From assembly GCA_964391505.1 (NCBI GenBank), contig CAYMMG010000002.1, positions 38,455 through 102,454 on the forward strand: a stretch of DNA of 64,000 bases, read 5' to 3'. The notes beneath the pieces are model-generated. The model was not told the DNA's origin, did not search any database, and worked only from the letters and a program-made list of their open reading frames with translations. Source of the DNA: an uncultured Burkholderiales bacterium. Lineage in GTDB: Bacteria; Actinomycetota; Acidimicrobiia; IMCC26256; JAGPDB01. Positions within the stretch are counted from its first letter, which is position 1. Each line of letters begins with the position of its first letter. Made by a program: the position numbers and the translations under genes. This document shows positions 2,443 to 54,954 of the stretch, piece by piece.

Positions 2443-3561
2443 ATGTCAGAAACACAAAGTACACCTATTACTATTCCCCATGAGCTTCTTCCCGCAGATG
2501 GTCGATTCGGTTCGGGTCCTTCTAAAGTTCGACCGGAGCAGCTTGAGCATCTCAATAAAAATTCACATCTCTTAGGAACAAGTCACCGACAAAAACCTAT
2601 TAAAAAAATGGTGGCGGGTATTCAAGAAAAAATGACAACACTTTTTGCTTTGCCGAGCGATTACGAAGTTCTTTTAACAAATGGTGGGGCTTCTCTCATG
2701 TGGGATGCTGCAAGCTTTAGCGTGATTAAAAACAAGAGCGCACATGCAGTATATGGGGAATTCTCCTCTCGCTTTGCTGCTATTTCGAAGAAAGCGCCGC
2801 ATCTCGATGAACCGTTGATTGCTGAAGCACAACCAGGAATCGCAGCATATCTTGAGACAGATTCCAGTGTAGACACATACTGCTTAACGCATAATGAAAC
2901 TTCTACAGGTGTCATGGTTTCTCCTTATCGAGTGGGAAATGAGAAAAGCGTTGTAATGATTGATGCGACTTCAGGTGCAGGATCGTGTGCGGTTGACCCT
3001 TCGGCGTATGACATGTATTACTTTTCTCCACAAAAATGTTTTGGTGCTGACGGAGGTATCGTTTTTGCTTTGTGCTCCCCTGCAATGATCGCGCGCATTG
3101 AATCCGTTGATCGTTATGCTCCCGCAATTCTTGATCTGAAAACGACGATAGAGAATTCTCGCTTGAATCAAACACTCAACACTCCAGCACTCACAACATT
3201 ATTCCTTGTTGACTCACAGCTCGATTGGCTCCTCGAAAATGGAGGAATGGACTTTGCTCACAAGCGTTGTTCCGATTCTTCCTCCCAGCTCTACACGTGG
3301 GCAGAAAACCATGAGCTCACTTCACCCTTTGTAACCAATACCGATGAGCGCTCGCTCGTTACAGCCACCATTGATATTGCAGAATCTATTGACGCAGAAG
3401 ATGTGGTTGCGACATTGCGTGCGAATGGAATCGTGGATTGCGATCCCTATCGCAAACTTGGACGCAACCAAATTCGCGTTGCTACTTTTCCATCTATTGA
3501 CCCAGACGACATTTCACAACTCATTAAGAGCTTGGATTTCGTTATCAGTGCACTCGCATAA
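2443..3561 (+). CDS. serC: phosphoserine aminotransferase (actinobacterial-type SerC)
   Basis: N-terminal 'DGRFGSGPSKVRPEQL...LLGTSHRQKPIKKMV' matches my recollection of mycobacterial SerC. At 372 aa the length is typical. Confidence 0.9.
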   Translation: MSETQSTPITIPHELLPADGRFGSGPSKVRPEQLEHLNKNSHLLGTSHRQKPIKKMVAGIQEKMTTLFALPSDYEVLLTNGGASLMWDAASFSVIKNKSAHAVYGEFSSRFAAISKKAPHLDEPLIAEAQPGIAAYLETDSSVDTYCLTHNETSTGVMVSPYRVGNEKSVVMIDATSGAGSCAVDPSAYDMYYFSPQKCFGADGGIVFALCSPAMIARIESVDRYAPAILDLKTTIENSRLNQTLNTPALTTLFLVDSQLDWLLENGGMDFAHKRCSDSSSQLYTWAENHELTSPFVTNTDERSLVTATIDIAESIDAEDVVATLRANGIVDCDPYRKLGRNQIRVATFPSIDPDDISQLIKSLDFVISALA

Positions 3562-3580
3562 CAATATTAAGAATTAATAT

Positions 3581-3928
3581 TTAGTAGTCGGTGGTAAGTT
3601 TACTTAACGTACTTTGACACTTCGACGTTGCTGATTCAAGTGCCTCTTTTTCCTTTTGGGTTCCTTCTACAGCACTCAACTCGTTTGTTGTTTTTGCATC
3701 GACAATTTTCTTTAACGTCTTTGCTGACATATCGTCGTATGTATCATCTACATAACAATCAACGTATTCATCAATCACTTTTTTCTGTTCTTCTGTTGGC
3801 GTAAAGCCAAGAGTCTTTACGATAATGCCATTTGTTGATTCCTTAACGGACTCTTTCGATGGCTTTGTTTCGCCACAACCAGCTAAAACAAGTATTCCAA
3901 TACACAGACTTAGAGCTATTTTCTTCAT
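3581..3928 (-). CDS. small lipoprotein (paralogue A)
   Basis: Signal peptide plus lipobox 'VLAGCG'. Paralogous to the next gene ('EEYVDCYVDDTYDDMSAKTLKKI'). Confidence 0.6.
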   Translation of the reverse strand: MKKIALSLCIGILVLAGCGETKPSKESVKESTNGIIVKTLGFTPTEEQKKVIDEYVDCYVDDTYDDMSAKTLKKIVDAKTTNELSAVEGTQKEKEALESATSKCQSTLSKLTTDY

Positions 3929-3950
3929 TTTAGGATCCCCTTATTACCTT

Positions 3951-4289
3951 TTAGAAGCCACCTTCAGGCAACTTATCTTCACACTTTTTCAAAGACTCGT
4001 CGAATGCCTCATTTTCTTTATCGCTTGCTTCATATTCGTCTCGGACTTTTTTATCTTCACTCGTAAGTGCTTCTAATGTCTTTGTCGAAAGGTCTCCATA
4101 GATATCATCCACAAAGCAACTCACATACTCTTCTAATTGTTGCTTTTCTTTTCCAGAAAGTTTTTTTGACTCATCTTCCATGATGCTTTCTGTAAATACT
4201 TTCTTCACTTCTGATTTTGAAGGCTTCGAAGAACCGCAACCAGTAAAAATAATCATTCCAATACAGATACTTGCAATAATCTTTATCAT
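3951..4289 (-). CDS. small lipoprotein (paralogue B)
   Basis: Signal peptide plus lipobox 'IFTGCG'. 'EEYVSCFVDDIYGDLSTKTLEAL' aligns with paralogue A. Confidence 0.6.
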   Translation of the reverse strand: MIKIIASICIGMIIFTGCGSSKPSKSEVKKVFTESIMEDESKKLSGKEKQQLEEYVSCFVDDIYGDLSTKTLEALTSEDKKVRDEYEASDKENEAFDESLKKCEDKLPEGGF

Positions 4290-34051: not shown

Positions 34052-34113
34052 GTCATCCTGAGGGCTTCATTCATTGTCATCCTGAACGAAGTGAAGGATC
34101 TCCGCGCAGCGGG
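34052..34113 (+). repeat. GTCATCCTGAG...GAAGGATCTC dispersed repeat
   Basis: 'GTCATCCTGAGGGCTTCATTCATTGTCATCCTGAACGAAGTGAAGGATCTCCGCGCAGCGGG' in the cysS-rlmB spacer. Confidence 0.7.
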
Positions 34114-37646: not shown

Positions 37647-38432
37647 ATGGATTTTGGAATTGAAGGAAAGGTAGCTCTGGTTTCAGGGGGCACGCAGGGC
37701 ATCGGGCTCGCAGCTGCACAAGCCTTATTAAATGAAGGCGTACACGTTGCGATTTTCTCTCGCAATGCCGACAATATTAATGAAGCGATTGAAACTCTGA
37801 ATGTGAGCAATTCGAACCTTATCGGTTTTCCCTCTGATCTCAGTGATGAAAAATCTATCGATGAGATGCTCGCTCGCGTTCGCACGCAGCTTGGTGAGAT
37901 CAATATTTTCGTGGGTAGTTCAGGTGGCCCGTCTTTTGGTCAGGCTCACGAGCTCTCACGTGATGATCTCATTGCTGCACTCGAATCTAATTTCATCGCA
38001 CTCGCTACGCTGACCAATAAATTACTTCCCGACATGCAATCCAAAAGTTGGGGAAGAATTGTCTATGTCACGACAAGCGGTGTTGTTCAACCAGTTCCCA
38101 ATCTTGCGTTATCGAATGTTGCGCGTTCTGCATTAACGAGCTTTACGAAAACTCTTTCTAACGAAGTTGCTGCACAAGGGATCACCGTCAATACTGTTAT
38201 TCCCGGAAGAATCGACACACCACGTTTACAAGAAGTAACACGAAATGAAGCAAGAACAATTGGAATAACCTACGAAGAAAAACTCACTCAGGACGGGAAA
38301 GCTATTCCGGCTGGCCGATACGGTCGTGCAGAAGAAATTGCAAATGCGATCGTCTTTTTATGTTCCCAACCTGCGTCGTACATCACCGGCGTTCGTCTTG
38401 CCGTTGATGGCGGATTAATTAAGAGCGTTTAG
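37647..38432 (+). CDS. SDR-family oxidoreductase (divergent catalytic motif)
   Basis: 'KVALVSGGTQGIGLA' Rossmann motif. 'SNVAR' stands where YxxxK is expected. 'ITVNTVIPGRIDT'. Confidence 0.75.
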   Translation: MDFGIEGKVALVSGGTQGIGLAAAQALLNEGVHVAIFSRNADNINEAIETLNVSNSNLIGFPSDLSDEKSIDEMLARVRTQLGEINIFVGSSGGPSFGQAHELSRDDLIAALESNFIALATLTNKLLPDMQSKSWGRIVYVTTSGVVQPVPNLALSNVARSALTSFTKTLSNEVAAQGITVNTVIPGRIDTPRLQEVTRNEARTIGITYEEKLTQDGKAIPAGRYGRAEEIANAIVFLCSQPASYITGVRLAVDGGLIKSV

Positions 38433-38441
38433 TAGATCTGT

Positions 38442-39227
38442 TCACGAACCAGTAATCAGAGCAAATGCTTTCGTCCACGCAGCTTTCGCATCGGCTGCAC
38501 GATAACTATCCCGGTCGGGATCGTGCATGAAAGCATGTTCGGCCTCAGGGAAAATCATCAATTCCGAACCAATAGCTTTGTGATACTCAGTATCCAGAAC
38601 TTCCGATAGTTTTTGCACATCGTCGCTCGGCGTGTAGTGATCTCGACCACCCAGAATTGCAAGTAAACGTGATGAAGTATCCATTGCGACATAATCGAGC
38701 GGTTCGCGTTGACCCGGCCCCTTCCATGCATCTGGCAAAGTAATCATTCCATAACAAGAAACGACAGCATCAAATTCTCCGGTCCCCGCACACTTGAACG
38801 CGTACATTCCACCGATACAAAAACCAATCATTGATACACGGGCGCAGTTGTGTTGTGTACGCAATATTTTTCCTGCTGCCAAAAGGTCTGCGCATTGCAT
38901 TGTGTCGTCGAGATCTTTAATCCGAGCAAACTTTTCATCGCGCGTCAATTCGGATGGATTTTCTGACATATGAGAAAAAGGTTCTACTGCAATAGTTGCA
39001 ATACCCAAACCCGCAAGCTGCGCAACCGTGTCATCGACGAGTGGTCGTAATCCATTGATATCGGGATGAAGAACAAGACCAACATGTGTTGCGTCTTTAG
39101 GAAAGGCCACCGTTACAGAGGTTCCCGACGACAACACGGAATGGTTAAGTTGCACGTCGTGTTTCCCTGCAGGAAGAAAGTCGAGCATGCAAGCCAGCTT
39201 ACCGTGAATCATCGATAGATAAGACAA
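38442..39227 (-). CDS. dienelactone-hydrolase-family protein
   Basis: Nucleophile elbow 'GFCIGG' (Cys type) and 'PEAEHAF'. TTG start; internal Met starts are possible. Confidence 0.75.
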   Translation of the reverse strand: MSYLSMIHGKLACMLDFLPAGKHDVQLNHSVLSSGTSVTVAFPKDATHVGLVLHPDINGLRPLVDDTVAQLAGLGIATIAVEPFSHMSENPSELTRDEKFARIKDLDDTMQCADLLAAGKILRTQHNCARVSMIGFCIGGMYAFKCAGTGEFDAVVSCYGMITLPDAWKGPGQREPLDYVAMDTSSRLLAILGGRDHYTPSDDVQKLSEVLDTEYHKAIGSELMIFPEAEHAFMHDPDRDSYRAADAKAAWTKAFALITGS

Positions 39228-39229
39228 CA

Positions 39230-39333
39230 GTCATTCTGAGGCTTTATCTGCCATCCCTTCATTCGCTTCGCTCTCTCGAGGGCAGGCTCTGAACGAAGGA
39301 AAGGATCTCCAGGTTCAAGTCCAGGTGGTGCAC
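39230..39333 (+). repeat. composite repeat: GTCATTCTGAG...GAAAGGATCTC plus degenerate T-arm-like 'GGTTCAAGTCC'
   Basis: 'GTCATTCTGAGGCTTT...CTGAACGAAGGAAAGGATCTCCAGGTTCAAGTCCAGGTGGTGCAC'. Confidence 0.7.
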
Positions 39334-39345
39334 TGCTGCTTCTAT

Positions 39346-39747
39346 TCAAGAGGTTTCGCCAAATAGTATTGTCAAAATAATGGTGATAGCCGCAAGAGCC
39401 AACACGGGTATGATCAGGTACAAAGTAAATTTAAAACTTATTGGTCCACGTGCGTTCCAATAATCCGCATATGTTGCTTTTCGCAAAAACCATATAACTG
39501 GAATCCATGCGATGAAATACTGCACGGTACAAAGAACTATAAAAAATACGGGATGCTCTCTCGGAACAAAGTGTAGAGGACTCCAATCAAATCTGCGTGC
39601 CAGAGTTTCATAAGAAATTGCTTCTACACATACCGCAAATATCACAATAAAGTGGTTAACGATTCCAAAGAGTATTCCGAAAGACCATTTCCATCTTTTA
39701 GGTATTCGTGAATCATCTCGAAGCTTTTCTCTTCTCATGTTTCTCAT
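39346..39747 (-). CDS. hypothetical membrane protein (133 aa, 4 TM)
   Basis: Hydrophobic segments; no motif recognised. Confidence 0.45.
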   Translation of the reverse strand: MRNMRREKLRDDSRIPKRWKWSFGILFGIVNHFIVIFAVCVEAISYETLARRFDWSPLHFVPREHPVFFIVLCTVQYFIAWIPVIWFLRKATYADYWNARGPISFKFTLYLIIPVLALAAITIILTILFGETS

Positions 39748-39849
39748 AATAGTGTCCAGTCTTCAAACAGAATTTGGTTAAAAGCCGGTAAGCAGTATCT
39801 GTGAAGAGTTGTCTGACTGCTGTTCATTAGAAATTCTGGGGCGTTACCT

Positions 39850-39903
39850 GTCATCCAAAACGAAGTGAAGGATCTACGGGTTCAAGTCCCGTGGGGCGTA
39901 CCA
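39850..39903 (+). repeat. composite repeat ending in a tRNA 3'-half-like motif (T-arm + 7 nt + ACCA)
   Basis: 'GTCATCCAAAACGAAGTGAAGGATCT-ACGGG-TTCAAGT-CCCGT-GGGGCGT-A-CCA'. Flanked by the direct repeat TGGGGCGT(T)ACC. Confidence 0.7.
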
Positions 39904-39925
39904 ACTACTGATGTCTGCTTATTTT

Positions 39926-40405
39926 CTACTTCTCAACTTGGCCGATGGCTTCACCTATGATCAAATAAATCTTTCGAAAATCTGAGAGGTCATAGTCGCA
40001 AGACGAGATCTCAATCTTTGTATCTCCAGAGTGAAATACCATCTCGGTATCAGAGCCGTCAGCCCATGAATCGCAAAATTCTTCACTTTTTTTGGAATCC
40101 TCGAGCTTATTGAGCTGATCTGTTATAGCTGCTTTAAAATTACTAAGTATACGTGTGTCATATTTTCCTCGATGAGTCTCTGAAGCATATTCAGAAATCC
40201 AGCTACCGTCACTAAAAACTCGTAACTCCGTTTGATCACAAGGACCGGCACAATATCCACCTTCAGTTTGTAAAGTAAATATCACAGATCTTGCAGGACG
40301 ATTGGAATGCCCTGAAGTACTGTTCGGCATTATAAAAAAATATGTGCCAAGAATTACCATTAAAGTGCCAAGTATGACTATAGATACAAGTTTTGTGCGT
40401 TTCAT
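39926..40405 (-). CDS. hypothetical exported/anchored protein (159 aa)
   Basis: N-terminal hydrophobic segment 'LVSIVILGTLMVILGTYFFIM'; no motif recognised. Confidence 0.45.
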   Translation of the reverse strand: MKRTKLVSIVILGTLMVILGTYFFIMPNSTSGHSNRPARSVIFTLQTEGGYCAGPCDQTELRVFSDGSWISEYASETHRGKYDTRILSNFKAAITDQLNKLEDSKKSEEFCDSWADGSDTEMVFHSGDTKIEISSCDYDLSDFRKIYLIIGEAIGQVEK

Positions 40406-40524
40406 ATATTATGAGACGCCACAATTAGCTATAAAAGTTCCCAGTTTTGAATAAATTTTTCATCTATATACCGATGCTACTTAGGAGATTAATACCGAAT
40501 ACCCACTCCTCAAATCGGTTCCAA

Positions 40525-41100
40525 TCAGAAATGGTGGGGCGTACCGTTACTTTTGTTGTACTGTAAATGAACTGTCCCGTTATCAAATTTTTGTAGAGCT
40601 GTAAGTTCAAGTTGGGAAGTCATATTTTCCGGAAGCCAGTTTGTTCCGTTGCCAAGAATTACGGGGGCAATAAATTGATGATATTCATCAATAATGTTGG
40701 CCTTAATTGCGCTTGTCGCTAAGTGAGGGCCACCAATATTAAAATCCTTGTCTGATTCTGACATCATTTTTTGAATTTCCTCTAAGTCGAATACGCGCTC
40801 AAGAGATGTGTTATCTGTTGTCACCTCAGACAGCGAAGAAGAATAAACAATCTTGCTGGCTCCCCGCCAAATCTCAGCAAACTCGTTCGTTGCCTCACTC
40901 TCATCATTTGCAGGCATAGCGTCCCAAACTTTCATTAGTTCATACACTTTCCTCCCAAACAAAAACGTGCCTACATTCCGCAAATTTTCATTTATACAAC
41001 GATGAACTTCTTCGCTTGGTGTAGTGAAGTCAAAATTTCCGCTCTTATCTGAGACATACCCGTCAACTGAGGTGGTGAGTAAATAAATCAATTTTCCCAT
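40525..41100 (-). CDS. RibD_C / dihydrofolate-reductase-like family protein
   Basis: 'MGKLIYLLTTSVDGYVSDKSGNFDF...FLFGRKVYELM'. Confidence 0.7.
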   Translation of the reverse strand: MGKLIYLLTTSVDGYVSDKSGNFDFTTPSEEVHRCINENLRNVGTFLFGRKVYELMKVWDAMPANDESEATNEFAEIWRGASKIVYSSSLSEVTTDNTSLERVFDLEEIQKMMSESDKDFNIGGPHLATSAIKANIIDEYHQFIAPVILGNGTNWLPENMTSQLELTALQKFDNGTVHLQYNKSNGTPHHF

Positions 41101-41161
41101 TCAACTATTATTCCATATCTATTAGTGCTGCCAGGGTCGCAACACCTCGACGTATAGGGTA

Positions 41162-41188
41162 GAGATCCTTCGCTCCGTTCAGGATGAC
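41162..41188 (-). repeat. GTCATCCTGAG...GAAGGATCTC dispersed repeat (short copy)
   Basis: 'GAGATCCTTCGCTCCGTTCAGGATGAC'. Confidence 0.65.
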
Positions 41189-41236
41189 GTATTGAGCCAA
41201 GGATAACGTGCTTCGTTCTGGAAGAAAGCAGCCGAA

Positions 41237-42610
41237 TTAGATTCCGAGGTTACAGAGAACAACAGCTAAAGAATCAACATTATCAATTGTGATACTTTTT
41301 CGATCAGCTGCAGAAAGTTCTGATTTGCCACTGTTGAGATGAATCTGTTCATGACCGCGTCGCGCTGCTTCACGCACACGACGAGACGCATGGGTAGATG
41401 GGCGAAGTTCTCCTGACAACCCCACTTCTCCTGCAAAAACATCATTGCGATCAATAATGACATCTCGATCTGCGGAAGCAATCGCCACACAAATAGCCAA
41501 GTCGAGCCCAGCATCCTTGACTCGGATTCCACCCACCAATGAAACATATACATCGCATTGCGACACATTGACGTTGCACCGCTTATGTAAAACCGCAATC
41601 AGACTCGAGACGCGCGCATTATCTACACCTTGAACCACACGGCGAGGAACCGGTGCGGTAGTTGGAACAACGAGGGCTTGAACTTCAACGAGAAAAGGAC
41701 GTGAACCATCAACCGCTGCAGCAACAGCCAGACCCGAAGGTCGAGCCAGACCGGTCATGGCCATTAATGCACTTGGGTCGTCCAGTGCGATAAGCCCATG
41801 TTCTGTCATATCAAAAAGACCAAGTTCTTCAGTCGTTCCAAACCGATGTTTGGTAGCACGCAAAGTTCGCACCAAAGCATGATCATCACCTTCGAATGAC
41901 AAAACCGTGTCAACAACGTGTTCAAGGACACGCGGACCAGCGAGTGTTCCCTCTTTTGTCACTTGTCCAACAACAATGACTGTGGTTGTTGTCGACTTTG
42001 CAAACTCGGTAAGGCGATGCGCACATTCACGCACTTGGGAAACTGTACCTGCCGATGATGAAATGTCGTTACACACAAGCGTATGAATAGAGTCGACAAT
42101 AACGACGGAACTTTTCGTTTCACCCGCATGATGAATGATGTCTTCGATGCGCGAGGTAGAAACGACTTTGATGAGATCAGAATCAACACCCAGACGCGAT
42201 GCGCGTCCGCGAATTTGCGCATTGGATTCTTCAGCACTTGCATAGAGCGATGCTGTATTTCGTTTTGCCAATGAACCAACAATCTGCATCACCAAAGTGG
42301 ATTTCCCAATTCCAGGTTCGCCGCCAATAAGCGTAACGGAACCAGGAACCAGGCCACCACCCACCACATGGTCGAACTCATCAATTCCTGTGGGGATAGG
42401 GGTTGATTCGAGGATATCGACATCGCTCAACGAAACCACAGTCGATGCAACCGAAGCAGATCGCGTGATCATGGGATCTGCTTCGGCAGTGTTTCCGATA
42501 ACGGATTCGACGAGAGTGTTCCACCCGCCGCATTCATTACAACGCCCAAGCCACTTGGGAAATTGACTTGCACATGTCTGGCACTCGAAAACTGTTCGCG
42601 TTTTGGTCAT
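41237..42610 (-). CDS. radA: DNA repair protein RadA
   Basis: Zinc finger 'CQTCASQFPKWLGRCNECGGWNT', Walker A 'GGEPGIGKST', Lon-like C-terminus. Confidence 0.95.
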   Translation of the reverse strand: MTKTRTVFECQTCASQFPKWLGRCNECGGWNTLVESVIGNTAEADPMITRSASVASTVVSLSDVDILESTPIPTGIDEFDHVVGGGLVPGSVTLIGGEPGIGKSTLVMQIVGSLAKRNTASLYASAEESNAQIRGRASRLGVDSDLIKVVSTSRIEDIIHHAGETKSSVVIVDSIHTLVCNDISSSAGTVSQVRECAHRLTEFAKSTTTTVIVVGQVTKEGTLAGPRVLEHVVDTVLSFEGDDHALVRTLRATKHRFGTTEELGLFDMTEHGLIALDDPSALMAMTGLARPSGLAVAAAVDGSRPFLVEVQALVVPTTAPVPRRVVQGVDNARVSSLIAVLHKRCNVNVSQCDVYVSLVGGIRVKDAGLDLAICVAIASADRDVIIDRNDVFAGEVGLSGELRPSTHASRRVREAARRGHEQIHLNSGKSELSAADRKSITIDNVDSLAVVLCNLGI

Positions 42611-42664
42611 GTGCCTGTTTCTTTCTGCTTTTAGGGTCGTACCTTGGAAAGATAAAGACAGAGT

Positions 42665-43492
42665 CTATAAAGGCTCAATCTTTTCCGAGGTGCGGCCCTC
42701 CCCTGTTTGAGCGGTTTCTTCTACTACTGGTGATACTAAACGGGGGGTACGACATAATTTCCACAAGAGAATCAAGCCAATCACGGCGCAGGCAATCGCA
42801 CCAGCCATATTGGCAAGAAAGCGCGTTCTCACAACATCGTTTGAAACATCCAAAGTTTTTTTATCGACATTATCGCCTGAAATGGAAACTTCATCACGTT
42901 GTCCTTTTTGTTTCAGAATCACTGTCAGCTTTGTAGAAGTCATCGCATTATTAATAATCGTTTCGAATTCAGAAAATTCCATGCCTGATTCTTCGACCGC
43001 TACTTTTACTGCATCATCTTTCAGATACAGATCACGCAACCGAGAAACATCAATATCAATCAAAGCCTCCTGCTTTTCCTTTACGAGCGACGTCTTAGAA
43101 AAAAGAGATGCATTAATAACATCGGGAGGCGCGAGTACAGACAGCGCAGCTTGCAACTGTTTTTCATTAGCGAAGGAAGCAGAAATGTCGATGCGACCTG
43201 GCGCCCCATGAGTATCTTTCACCGTGACTTTAAAGCCCGCCTTTTTTAATTTCTCCGTATCAAAGATTGCAGACAGCGTCGACTTCTCATATACATCTCG
43301 GCGAACAGCAGAAGCTGCTTGTTCATCCAAAACAAGAGAAAAGGTCATTGTCCCGCTCGTTTTTTCTCCCAGCTCGATAGTGAGCGTACTCGTGGCCTTA
43401 CATCCACTTAAAGCGATACATAACACAACACCCACAGCGACAATCTTGGACGCCGTGCGAACGCGATACCGCGATAATCCCCGACGATTCAC
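42665..43492 (-). CDS. putative lipoprotein with additional C-terminal TM segment
   Basis: Start taken at GTG (43492), giving 'MNRRGLSRYRVRTASKIVAVGVVLCIALSGC' (lipobox LSGC). C-terminal 'AGAIACAVIGLILLW'. The track ORF extends further, antisense to the aqpZ start. Confidence 0.5.
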   Translation of the reverse strand: MNRRGLSRYRVRTASKIVAVGVVLCIALSGCKATSTLTIELGEKTSGTMTFSLVLDEQAASAVRRDVYEKSTLSAIFDTEKLKKAGFKVTVKDTHGAPGRIDISASFANEKQLQAALSVLAPPDVINASLFSKTSLVKEKQEALIDIDVSRLRDLYLKDDAVKVAVEESGMEFSEFETIINNAMTSTKLTVILKQKGQRDEVSISGDNVDKKTLDVSNDVVRTRFLANMAGAIACAVIGLILLWKLCRTPRLVSPVVEETAQTGEGRTSEKIEPL

Positions 43493-54906: not shown

Positions 54907-54954
54907 GTCATTCCGAGGCTCTGCGCGGAGATCCTTCACTGCGTTCAGGATGAC
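54907..54954. repeat. palindromic GTCATTCCGAG / GAGATCCTTC...CAGGATGAC repeat pair
   Basis: 'GTCATTCCGAGGCTCTGCGCGGAGATCCTTCACTGCGTTCAGGATGAC' fills the gap between convergent genes. Confidence 0.7.

Follow-up and report, generated by a model that had tools for sequence, protein, structure and literature searches.

The sequence analysed here is a 64,000-nucleotide window (positions 38,455 to 102,454 of contig CAYMMG010000002.1, GenBank assembly GCA_964391505.1) from a member of the Acidimicrobiia, in which a 2-kb interval of low GC content separates a dienelactone hydrolase (DLH) family gene from radA. The interval contains three small minus-strand genes and a series of short repeats (Table 1), some of which probably derive from integrative elements whose large serine recombinase (LSR) targets the 3′ end of tRNA-Lys(CTT). 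The genome to which the window belongs, referred to as G000 (1.79 Mb; assembly 89.6% complete), was compared with congeners including those referred to as G001 to G006.

The open reading frames (ORFs) that an earlier note on this DNA had assigned to a protein with four transmembrane segments, an anchored 159-aa protein and a RibD_C protein were confirmed, with 3-4 hydrophobic segments in the first, and the three genes are not paralogous. The GC content of the interval is 0.41 and that of its genes 0.39-0.41, as opposed to 0.48-0.49 in the flanking genes. The product of gene 1 has no Pfam match and no homologue other than itself among 5.8e9 proteins, and the gene is absent from 6 congeners. Gene 2 shows a weak match to DUF6438 (24.8 bits, under the Pfam cut-off) and is absent from all congeners examined; it has one relative, at 55%, and a shared context with this sole relative was ruled out, as the surroundings are unrelated. 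The last 7 codons and the stop codon of gene 3, whose product ends in ...GTPHHF*, are supplied by a repeat of the class termed type A below, and a homologue of this gene in G005, ending in RTPNHF*, likewise adjoins a type A unit. No tRNA was detected in the DLH-radA interval of the window using ARAGORN, and an Rfam scan of positions 38000-43000 at E values up to 10 returned chance snoRNA-like matches only.

Table 1. Features of the DLH-radA interval and its two flanking genes (positions in the window; repeat classes as defined in the text)
Feature	Position	Strand	Description
DLH family gene	38442..39227	-	Pfam PF01738, E 1e-23; conserved left flank
GTCATCC-family REP-like unit	39230..39308	+	5′ half-unit 39230-39249 plus variant with internal insertion 39250-39308
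Type B, decayed	39309..39333	+	CCAGGTTCAAGTCCAGGTGGTGCAC; tRNA-Lys(CTT)-like T-arm and acceptor 3′ strand; putative attB/attL-type half-site
Cassette gene 1	39346..39747	-	133-aa membrane protein, orphan; GC 0.386
Truncated type A unit	39822..39848	+	GTTCATTAGAAATTCTGGGGCGTTACC; matches 3′ part of full unit (1/500 shuffles); putative attR-type scar
GTCATCC REP-like unit fused to type B	39850..39875	+	Repeat-family match
Type B, well preserved	39876..39903	+	ACGGGTTCAAGTCCCGTGGGGCGTACCA; tRNA-Lys(CTT) T-arm, acceptor 3′ strand, CCA
Cassette gene 2	39926..40405	-	159-aa N-terminally anchored protein; GC 0.392
Full type A unit	40487..40548	+	Core 40503-40545 CCACTCCTCAAATCGGTTCCAATCAGAAATGGTGGGGCGTACC, about 42 nt; nhmmer E 2e-18; putative attR-type scar (P arm of LSR attP)
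Cassette gene 3	40525..41100	-	191-aa RibD_C (DHFR-like) protein; Pfam PF01872, E 1e-15
GTCATCC REP-like unit	41163..41188	-	Right boundary marker by radA stop; same place in G005 (C4:40375-40400)
radA	41237..42610	-	Conserved right flank of hot spot

A comparison of this locus across relatives, as the earlier note had proposed, identified the interval as an insertion. The synteny of radA and DLH holds across the order. In G004 and G006 a gap of about 24 bp separates the two genes, and in G003 they are joined across overlapping contig ends; because they are adjacent in these three congeners, the 2-kb low-GC interval is an insertion. In G001 the gap is occupied by one unrelated 185-aa gene without repeats, and in G005, the closest repeat-bearing relative, it exceeds 7 kb and contains other genes. 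The outer markers of the interval are old: G005 carries the orthologous composite of GTCATCC unit, T-arm and acceptor at the DLH start (the GTCATCC unit at C39:11244-11269), and a GTCATCC unit at the radA stop. No tRNA gene lies between radA and DLH in 16 relatives, and the empty sites contain no tRNA-like sequence, which rules out a decayed tRNA-Lys gene resident at the locus. In other families of the order the gap measures 1.3-1.6 kb, and in one of these genomes (G010, L009) it contains an open frame of about 400 aa, a gene that the genus appears to have lost.

Three classes of repeat unit

According to the earlier note, each of the three genes is followed by the same composite repeat, of which GTCATCC units form a part. 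The quoted motifs are present, and GTCATCC units are indeed fused to the first two of them, with a further unit closing the region. However, the claim of one common repeat did not survive a permutation test, in which local alignment scores of pairs of the four spacers (S1 to S4, numbered from the DLH side) were compared with those of 500 shuffles. Similarity was significant between S1 and S2 (a 40-nt common block with a score of 43, as opposed to 14.9 ± 2.1 in the shuffles; 0/500) and between S2 and S3 (a different common block of 29 nt with a score of 25; 1/500), but not between S1 and S3 or between S3 and S4, and S1 and S2 matched S4 solely through an inverted 26-nt GTCATCC unit (0/500). The part common to S1 and S2 is a GTCATCC unit plus a tRNA-Lys T-arm, that common to the left part of S2 and to S3 is type A, and the sole feature linking all three spacers S1-S3 is a tRNA-Lys acceptor string. 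The repeats of the interval are a mixture of three different elements: type A, type B and GTCATCC...GGATCT. Two strings resembling ACTGCTG(C)TTC(T)ATT (39332-39346 and 39816-39828) score about 16, a hand estimate only, which is within the shuffle range of the spacer test, with no match to the P′ arm of the recombinase described below.

The full type A unit reads VRPTISDWNRFEEW... on the minus strand, and type A in the tRNA sense is CCACTCCTCAAAGCGGTTCCAATCAGAAATGGTGGGGCGTAC(C). Type B consists of the T-arm and acceptor end of tRNA-Lys(CTT). The well-preserved copy matches positions 50-74 of the tRNA-Lys(CTT) gene on contig C38 of G000 at 96% identity over 25 nt, with a compensatory change in the T-stem (an A-T versus a C-G pair), and the decayed copy aligns with tRNA-Lys positions 47-68 and has an intact orthologue in G005, CAGGGTTCAAGTCCCGAGGGGTGTACCA. 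The string GGGGCGTACC occurs twice in the 1.79-Mb genome, both times in the interval and on the same strand, and GGATCT-N3-GGTTCAAGTCC is likewise found in the interval only.

The GTCATCC...GGATCT units form a dispersed family. At least 95 copies (up to 5 mismatches) are present in G000, in both orientations, frequently as inverted pairs and often just past tRNA genes. Strict copies number 66 in G000, 33 in G001 and 55 in G005, with 0-2 in the remaining congeners and none in any other genus searched, and no unit lies within an 11.5-kb type A array of G005. This family is REP/REPIN-like (REP, repetitive extragenic palindrome) and unrelated to the cassette arrays, with no cassette role of its own, contrary to its inclusion in a cassette motif by the earlier note. 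It resembles REP/REPIN sequences as a short, high-copy intergenic repeat whose inverted pairs form long hairpins and whose occurrence is lineage-restricted (G000, G001 and G005), but differs from them in that the single unit is not strongly palindromic and has a 5′ half-unit stutter. A literature search for the repeat string returned nothing relevant.

In addition to the units at 39850-39875 and 41163-41188, the window contains GTCATCC units at 34076-34101 and 54929-54954. The 5′ stutter, which is seen often, consists of the half-unit GTCATCCTGAG, about 9 nt, and then the full unit; pairing with GTCATTC...GAATCT variants yields hairpins of about 95 nt. The loops of many inverted pairs in G000 contain ...GCGGGTGTACGAG... 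(e.g., C1:64231-64260, C6:59060-59097 and C31:40-67); the resemblance of this string to the att core (G)GGGTGTAC(G/C)A may be a coincidence or may mark a source of pseudo-attB sites. A third, decayed fusion of a GTCATCC unit with a T-arm-like sequence (GGATCT-CT-GGTTCACGTCCCGGAGGCATAAGG) lies at C8:43543-43583 of G000, in the same orientation as the C8 array and on the tRNA-proximal side of that array, at a distance of about 3.7 kb from its last type A unit. The strict pattern of a REP unit fused to a T-arm matched at S2 and its G005 orthologue only.

Type A units and the coding tail of a large serine recombinase

In the orientation opposite to the tRNA sense, nearly every type A copy encodes (L/V)V(R/H)PTISDWNRFEEW.xG..EL; a short stretch of variable sequence and then a stop codon come next. 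Entropy by codon position was 0.79/0.86/1.08 in the core and 1.72/1.59/1.87 beyond it, with an enrichment at third positions; several four-fold sites show all four bases, and a TGA occupies the Trp codon in 6 of the 37 copies. A stand-alone small protein or a known domain was ruled out: no Pfam match was obtained, a 54-aa version had no homologue, and the peptide corresponds to the LSR tail described below.

LSRs with Resolvase, Recombinase and Zn_ribbon domains are encoded in G004, G005 and G006. In G004 and G006 the LSR ORF overlaps an antisense tRNA-Lys(CTT) gene and ends in ...EENG-L-V-R|RPGLEPGTCRLRV*, where everything past LVR is antisense tRNA, and this junction falls exactly where type A begins. 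The element in G004, approximately 9 kb in length, encodes a helix-turn-helix protein, a type III restriction-modification pair (methylase and Res), a MerR-like protein and the LSR, and its far end is a type A unit (L-V-H|PTISDWNRFEEW...). The MerR-like gene (257-261 aa) always neighbours the LSR gene, and its product is a candidate partner of the recombinase. On contig C54 of G005 (L062), a 40%-identical LSR abuts an antisense tRNA-Glu(TTC), and the type A unit at the far end reads VPPRINDWNRFEEW, then TTGGGGGTAC|AAATACGATCGCACG, which coincides exactly with the 3′ end of tRNA-Glu(TTC) and the native sequence downstream of it in G000. The first codons of the LSR tail co-vary with the target, VRPTISDW for tRNA-Lys (G004 C31 and G006 C67) and VPPRINDW for tRNA-Glu(TTC), because these codons are the antisense of about 10 nt that mimic the tRNA acceptor end.

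From the LSR-tRNA junctions and the far-end type A units the prediction followed that an LSR gene natively ends in type A as its C-terminal coding tail, which would be cut off on recombination of the tRNA with an attP inside the 3′ end of the gene. When 15 type A peptides were combined into a profile and compared with 1.84e9 proteins, 18 matches were obtained; most are mis-called ORFs of 32-57 aa (other scars), but one lies at residues 489-513 of a 517-aa full-length LSR from a metagenome (E 5.6e-9). This protein is 57-64% identical to the LSRs of G004 and G006 and carries the intact tail (...VVRPTISDWNRFEEW...; ...ENGVVRPTISDWNRFEEWINGV...; ending in ...SWLLIDFMDENSKENGVVRPTISDWNRFEEWINGVTRMEMTMNLNN). 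A 113-aa fragment has the same LSR-tail junction, and a type A DNA profile matches inside the intact ORF of the 517-aa LSR (2466-4019 on its metagenome contig, L068; E 2.6e-20). The prediction held, and type A is the displaced 3′ coding tail of the LSR gene. Because the full-length metagenomic LSR carries an intact type A tail, the repeats in the window can be interpreted as attR-type and attB/attL-type scars. All four att forms were recovered, namely attP inside the LSR ORF of L068 (about 3900-4000), attB as the tRNA-Lys 3′ end, attL as the LSR-tRNA junction and attR as a flank joined to type A, and each contains GGTAC(G/A)CC around the inferred crossover.

Among species-representative genomes, no close relative of this LSR was found apart from that of G006 itself. 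The only LSR of G000 is 26% identical and is located at tRNA-Pro; the statement of the earlier note that no integrase is visible holds for the window and extends to the G000 assembly, the LSR having been found in congeners and a metagenome.

Arrays and shared cassettes across the genus

An nhmmer search of G000 detected 6 full type A copies in 3 clusters, one copy in the window, two on C38 directly downstream of tRNA-Lys(CTT) and three on C8 by kdpA. A sequence model detected type A in 6 of 7 congeners, whereas 294 further genomes from the class gave no match. Public scans (185,579 species genomes, JGI metagenomes and IMG/VR) added two short metagenome contigs only, and none of the viral contigs contained a copy. 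The arrays are strictly co-oriented, with a median spacing of 900 bp (448-2205), and reach at least 14 units in 11.5 kb on G005 C52, mostly with one ORF between neighbours, although the ORFs themselves point either way. On G000 C38 and G001 C1 the array begins at tRNA-Lys(CTT) and is co-oriented with the tRNA, and some arrays contain longer fragments of the tRNA-Lys 3′ half that begin near the anticodon loop (G005 C47, G005 C39 and G001 C1:8689). The G000 assembly breaks inside tRNA-Lys(CTT): C29 (13087-13125) ends at tRNA position 39, and C38 (6418-6507) overlaps it by 55 nt, which is consistent with repeated tRNA-Lys 3′ halves or population variants at the integration site.

The array cargo comprises GNAT proteins, AadA-like and APH-family transferases, RibD_C proteins, HepT/MNT pairs, SRAP, an aldo/keto reductase, hydrolases and a cupin. 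Individual cassettes recur in arrays of different species. A kinase-like cassette that adjoins kdpA in G000 is part of the C52 array in G005 (89% over 732 nt), a GNAT cassette lies in the tRNA-Lys array of G000 and in the radA-DLH array of G005, and an aldo/keto reductase cassette is likewise common to arrays of different species. In the tRNA sense, homology between such cassettes starts right past one GTACC end and stops at the GTACC end of the next unit, and the flanking type A units are conserved at about 75%, as opposed to about 90% for the cassette bodies. ORFs that run into type A use its TGA, and unrelated proteins thus end in GTPHHF*, RTPNHF* or GTHPHF*. The gene-cassette-like organisation that the earlier note had proposed is borne out, since single-gene cassettes are delimited by one and the same junction unit in arrays throughout the genus.

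Origin of the islet and comparison with known systems

The DLH-radA interval is probably a small additive islet of three horizontally acquired cassettes bounded by leftover att sites of LSR elements that target the 3′ end of tRNA-Lys(CTT). The attP of such an element would sit inside the 3′ end of the LSR gene itself, and the crossover with the tRNA would occur in or beside GGTAC (GTAC|C in the tRNA sense), a position deduced by sequence comparison. Recombination would generate an attL in which the tRNA is joined to the LSR gene, which would then end in antisense-tRNA codons, and, at the far end, an attR in which the displaced tail-coding segment of the LSR gene, type A, is linked to the former downstream sequence. 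Type B, the copy of the tRNA-Lys T-arm and acceptor end, would represent an attB/attL-type half-site and is fused in the window to an unrelated GTCATCC unit. Repeated events would produce co-oriented modules of leader, ORF and type A at tRNA-Lys and at a few secondary sites including DLH-radA, and modules would be exchanged between arrays. The plus-strand (tRNA-sense) order, with B-O denoting the tRNA-Lys half-site (type B) and P-O denoting type A, is DLH, REP-like unit with decayed B-O, gene 1, truncated P-O, and REP-like unit with B-O at the left end, then gene 2, P-O, gene 3, inverted REP-like unit and radA at the right end; the interval can accordingly be read as a tandem pair of attL-type...attR-type modules, to which a third gene is added, its stop codon lying inside the preceding scar. 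It is in this sense that the phrase "serial tRNA-end-directed insertions" in the earlier note was right in substance, as the repeats appear to derive from site-specific recombination at the tRNA-Lys(CTT) 3′ end. The cassettes of the window would have been placed by an LSR of this family acting in trans, with a clean removal of LSR modules from the arrays and the arrival of a tRNA-Lys-like half-site beside the DLH gene.

Several observations weigh against this interpretation. No LSR of the tRNA-Lys family is present in the 89.6% complete G000 assembly, and therefore nothing in the genome is currently demonstrable as the mover of the cassettes; G001 has a tRNA-Lys array and no LSR match. No LSR fragments occur in any array, and no P′-arm remnant follows the type B or type A units or lies at cassette starts, so that a plain course of integration and subsequent decay fails to explain the clean single-gene modules. 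To our knowledge, canonical LSRs recombine attP with attB only, and neither the re-use of an occupied site nor exchange between two attR sites is established for them. Furthermore, since relatives have no tRNA gene at DLH-radA, the type B half-site must have been imported. The clean modules could have arisen by mobilisation in trans, by excision of the recombinase module alone or by homologous recombination between scars.

Homologous recombination is given a larger part in an alternative in which the LSR made the first scars only and type A units (42-60 nt, 75-80% identical) then served as homology anchors for RecA-dependent or illegitimate recombination, including that of imported DNA. The arrays without an LSR of the family in G000 and G001, the lower conservation of the type A flanks (about 75%) than of the cassette bodies (about 90%) and the cassette starts without P′ arms all agree with this alternative. 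Nevertheless, it is unlikely: RecA acts poorly on 42-nt stretches of 75-80% identity, the cassette boundaries are base-sharp at GTAC|C, and all arrays are strictly co-oriented, as directional site-specific recombination predicts. Much less credible is the proposal that type A and GTCATCC are ordinary dispersed REP-like or MITE-like repeats (MITE, miniature inverted-repeat transposable element) that had no part in forming an ordinary islet. This description truly applies to the GTCATCC family, with its at least 95 copies in inverted pairs and in both orientations, but type A, with no more than 6 copies in 3 clusters, is invariably co-oriented and confined to cassette junctions, lacks a hairpin and coincides with the 3′ coding end of the LSR gene, which largely refutes the proposal for type A; moreover, the arrays begin at tRNA-Lys.

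The tRNA-Lys fragments might instead be att scars of a tycheposon-like tyrosine-integrase element that built the arrays at tRNA-Lys, the LSR being incidental. Fragments of the 3′ half that start near the anticodon loop represent the classical sublocation of tyrosine integrases, and integrases of about 395 aa are encoded in array-bearing genomes and absent from G002 and G003. However, every such integrase examined adjoins tRNA-Met or tRNA-Leu(aag) rather than tRNA-Lys, with no type A nearby, by which these enzymes were ruled out as the array recombinase, and type A is an LSR gene tail; this alternative is highly improbable. The tyrosine recombinases that the earlier note had suggested searching for do exist elsewhere in the genome, but none lies near type A: the PF00589 matches in 7 genomes consist of two Xer-size genes each plus the integrases at tRNA-Met/tRNA-Leu. 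Least plausible of all, to the point of deserving almost no credence, is a true integron or a cluster of attC sites lacking integron-integrases (CALIN), in which type A would be an attC recombined by an integron integrase. The single ORF per repeat, the co-orientation, the cargo (GNAT, AadA-like, APH and DHFR-like proteins and toxin-antitoxin pairs) and the GTTGGGC of many type A copies, which fits GTTRRRY, recall such a system. On the other hand, RNAalifold gave no consensus structure for 37 units with flanks, and the mean z score of single-sequence folds was -0.01, which rules out attC-like folding of type A; no R″/R′ inverted pair (RYYYAAC/GTTRRRY) was found, what is conserved is a 42-nt sequence and not a structure, the ORFs lie in either orientation, and no IntI-like gene occurs in the 7 genomes. 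The attC analogy drawn in the earlier note is thus abandoned for want of hairpin, R″/R′ boxes and IntI.

A bolder form of the LSR interpretation, which is rather doubtful, holds that cassettes in this genus are handled by an integron-like platform in which the LSR takes the place of an integron integrase. A transient element would provide the LSR in trans, and the enzyme would deliver or shuffle single-gene cassettes and then be lost ("hit and run"). Each cassette would end in a scar made of the C-terminal coding tail of that recombinase, attI would have its counterpart in the tRNA-Lys 3′ end, and the fusion of half-site and REP unit (39850-39903; in decayed form, 39230-39333 and C8:43543-43583) would act as a portable pseudo-attB seeding arrays at non-tRNA loci. 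This "portable attB" is thinly supported, because the strict fusion pattern is limited to S2 and its G005 orthologue.

With respect to known systems, the tycheposon islands of Prochlorococcus grow at tRNA genes by stacked integrations with att repeats, and LSRs occur in 27 of 937 Prochlorococcus elements (bioRxiv 10.1101/2020.12.28.424599). The flexible genomic island fGI1 of 'Ca. Actinomarinales', which belong to the same class as the source organism, contains small tRNA-targeted cassettes with a tRNA direct repeat at the end (PMC7771536). The arrays described here share with both types of island the growth at the 3′ side of a tRNA, the att repeats between stacked insertions and a recombinase-less cargo; as in tycheposons, they start at a tRNA gene, tRNA-Lys(CTT), and contain fragments of it. 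They differ from both in that the scar is mostly the coding tail of a recombinase gene and not a partial tRNA, with only about 10 nt mimicking the tRNA, and that the enzyme is an LSR and not a tyrosine recombinase. The deep-branching tyrosine recombinase that is a hallmark of tycheposons is not the enzyme at tRNA-Lys, and the G004 element showed neither a primase nor a helicase module. Unlike in either island type, the modules typically consist of one gene with base-sharp ends and no recombinase debris, and arrays are also found at non-tRNA secondary sites.

Staphylococcal cassette chromosome (SCC) elements and the ccr-less pseudo-SCC islands of staphylococci are inserted by an LSR at the 3′ end of one conserved gene, rlmH/orfX, and their composite islands comprise tandem recombinase-less cassettes with direct repeats of the integration site that can be mobilised in trans. 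The arrays may be likened to these in having recombinase-less cassettes in LSR-built composite islands, but involve a different recombinase lineage, target a tRNA gene instead of a protein gene, have far smaller cassettes (about 0.5-2 kb) and use the tail of the recombinase's own gene as the repeat. The resemblance to integrons lies in co-oriented, mostly single-ORF cassettes that each end in a recombination site, in conservation that stops at the crossover, in a similar cargo and in a fixed site of primary insertion, which is attI in integrons and the 3′ end of tRNA-Lys in the arrays, whereas attC hairpins, IntI and Pc/attI are lacking, ORFs lie either way, and the site is set by sequence and not by structure. 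As for LSR integrative elements in general, a domain-complete recombinase is located at the element end in G004, G005, G006 and L068, although not in the G000 assembly, and attL and attR appear to be reciprocal attP/attB hybrids. The arrays are set apart from the known systems by the scar formed by a recombinase tail, the attP inside an ORF, the very regular single-gene modules and the secondary non-tRNA sites.

The LSR interpretation would offer a molecular explanation for an exchangeable single-gene pool (acetyltransferases, nucleotidyl- and phosphotransferases, DHFR-like proteins, toxin-antitoxin pairs and small hydrolases) in streamlined marine Acidimicrobiia with almost no classical mobile elements. 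It would also mean that what looks like a short intergenic "repeat" can in fact have been cut from the end of a recombinase gene, and orphan tail fragments could be used to map old integrations in other genomes. Matched attP, attB, attL and attR sequences for a tRNA-targeting LSR make the system open to direct bench testing, and if clean single-gene modules do move in trans, it would represent a serine-recombinase analogue of the integron.

Three further features of G000 lie outside the window. Two different tmRNA genes are present, at C5:59661-60022 and C50:402-766, with the tags ANDESESSVYALAA and AKSSVSPYFGAKDFAFALA; the second, on a short contig, could represent contamination or an element-borne copy. 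Downstream of many tRNA genes, tiny insertions (40-130 bp) occur singly or in pairs, with the 3′ part of the tRNA directly repeated beside each of them, as seen for Thr-cgt, Phe, Ala-tgc, Ser-cga, Val-tac, Trp, Glu-ctc and Leu-caa (C2:113319-113478, C8:51-241, C11:24128-24435, C12:5311-5467, C23:20694-20986, C20:6-342, C7:7187-7398 and C1:79356-79581); in some of these the anticodon stem is also present in inverted form or the T-arm has been replaced. Such insertions could be att scars, empty or minimal, left by other elements that target tRNA genes. Finally, C1:112560-124665 is a classical 12-kb island at tRNA-Leu(aag), with a 24-nt direct repeat of the tRNA 3′ end and a 395-aa tyrosine integrase (116688-117245).

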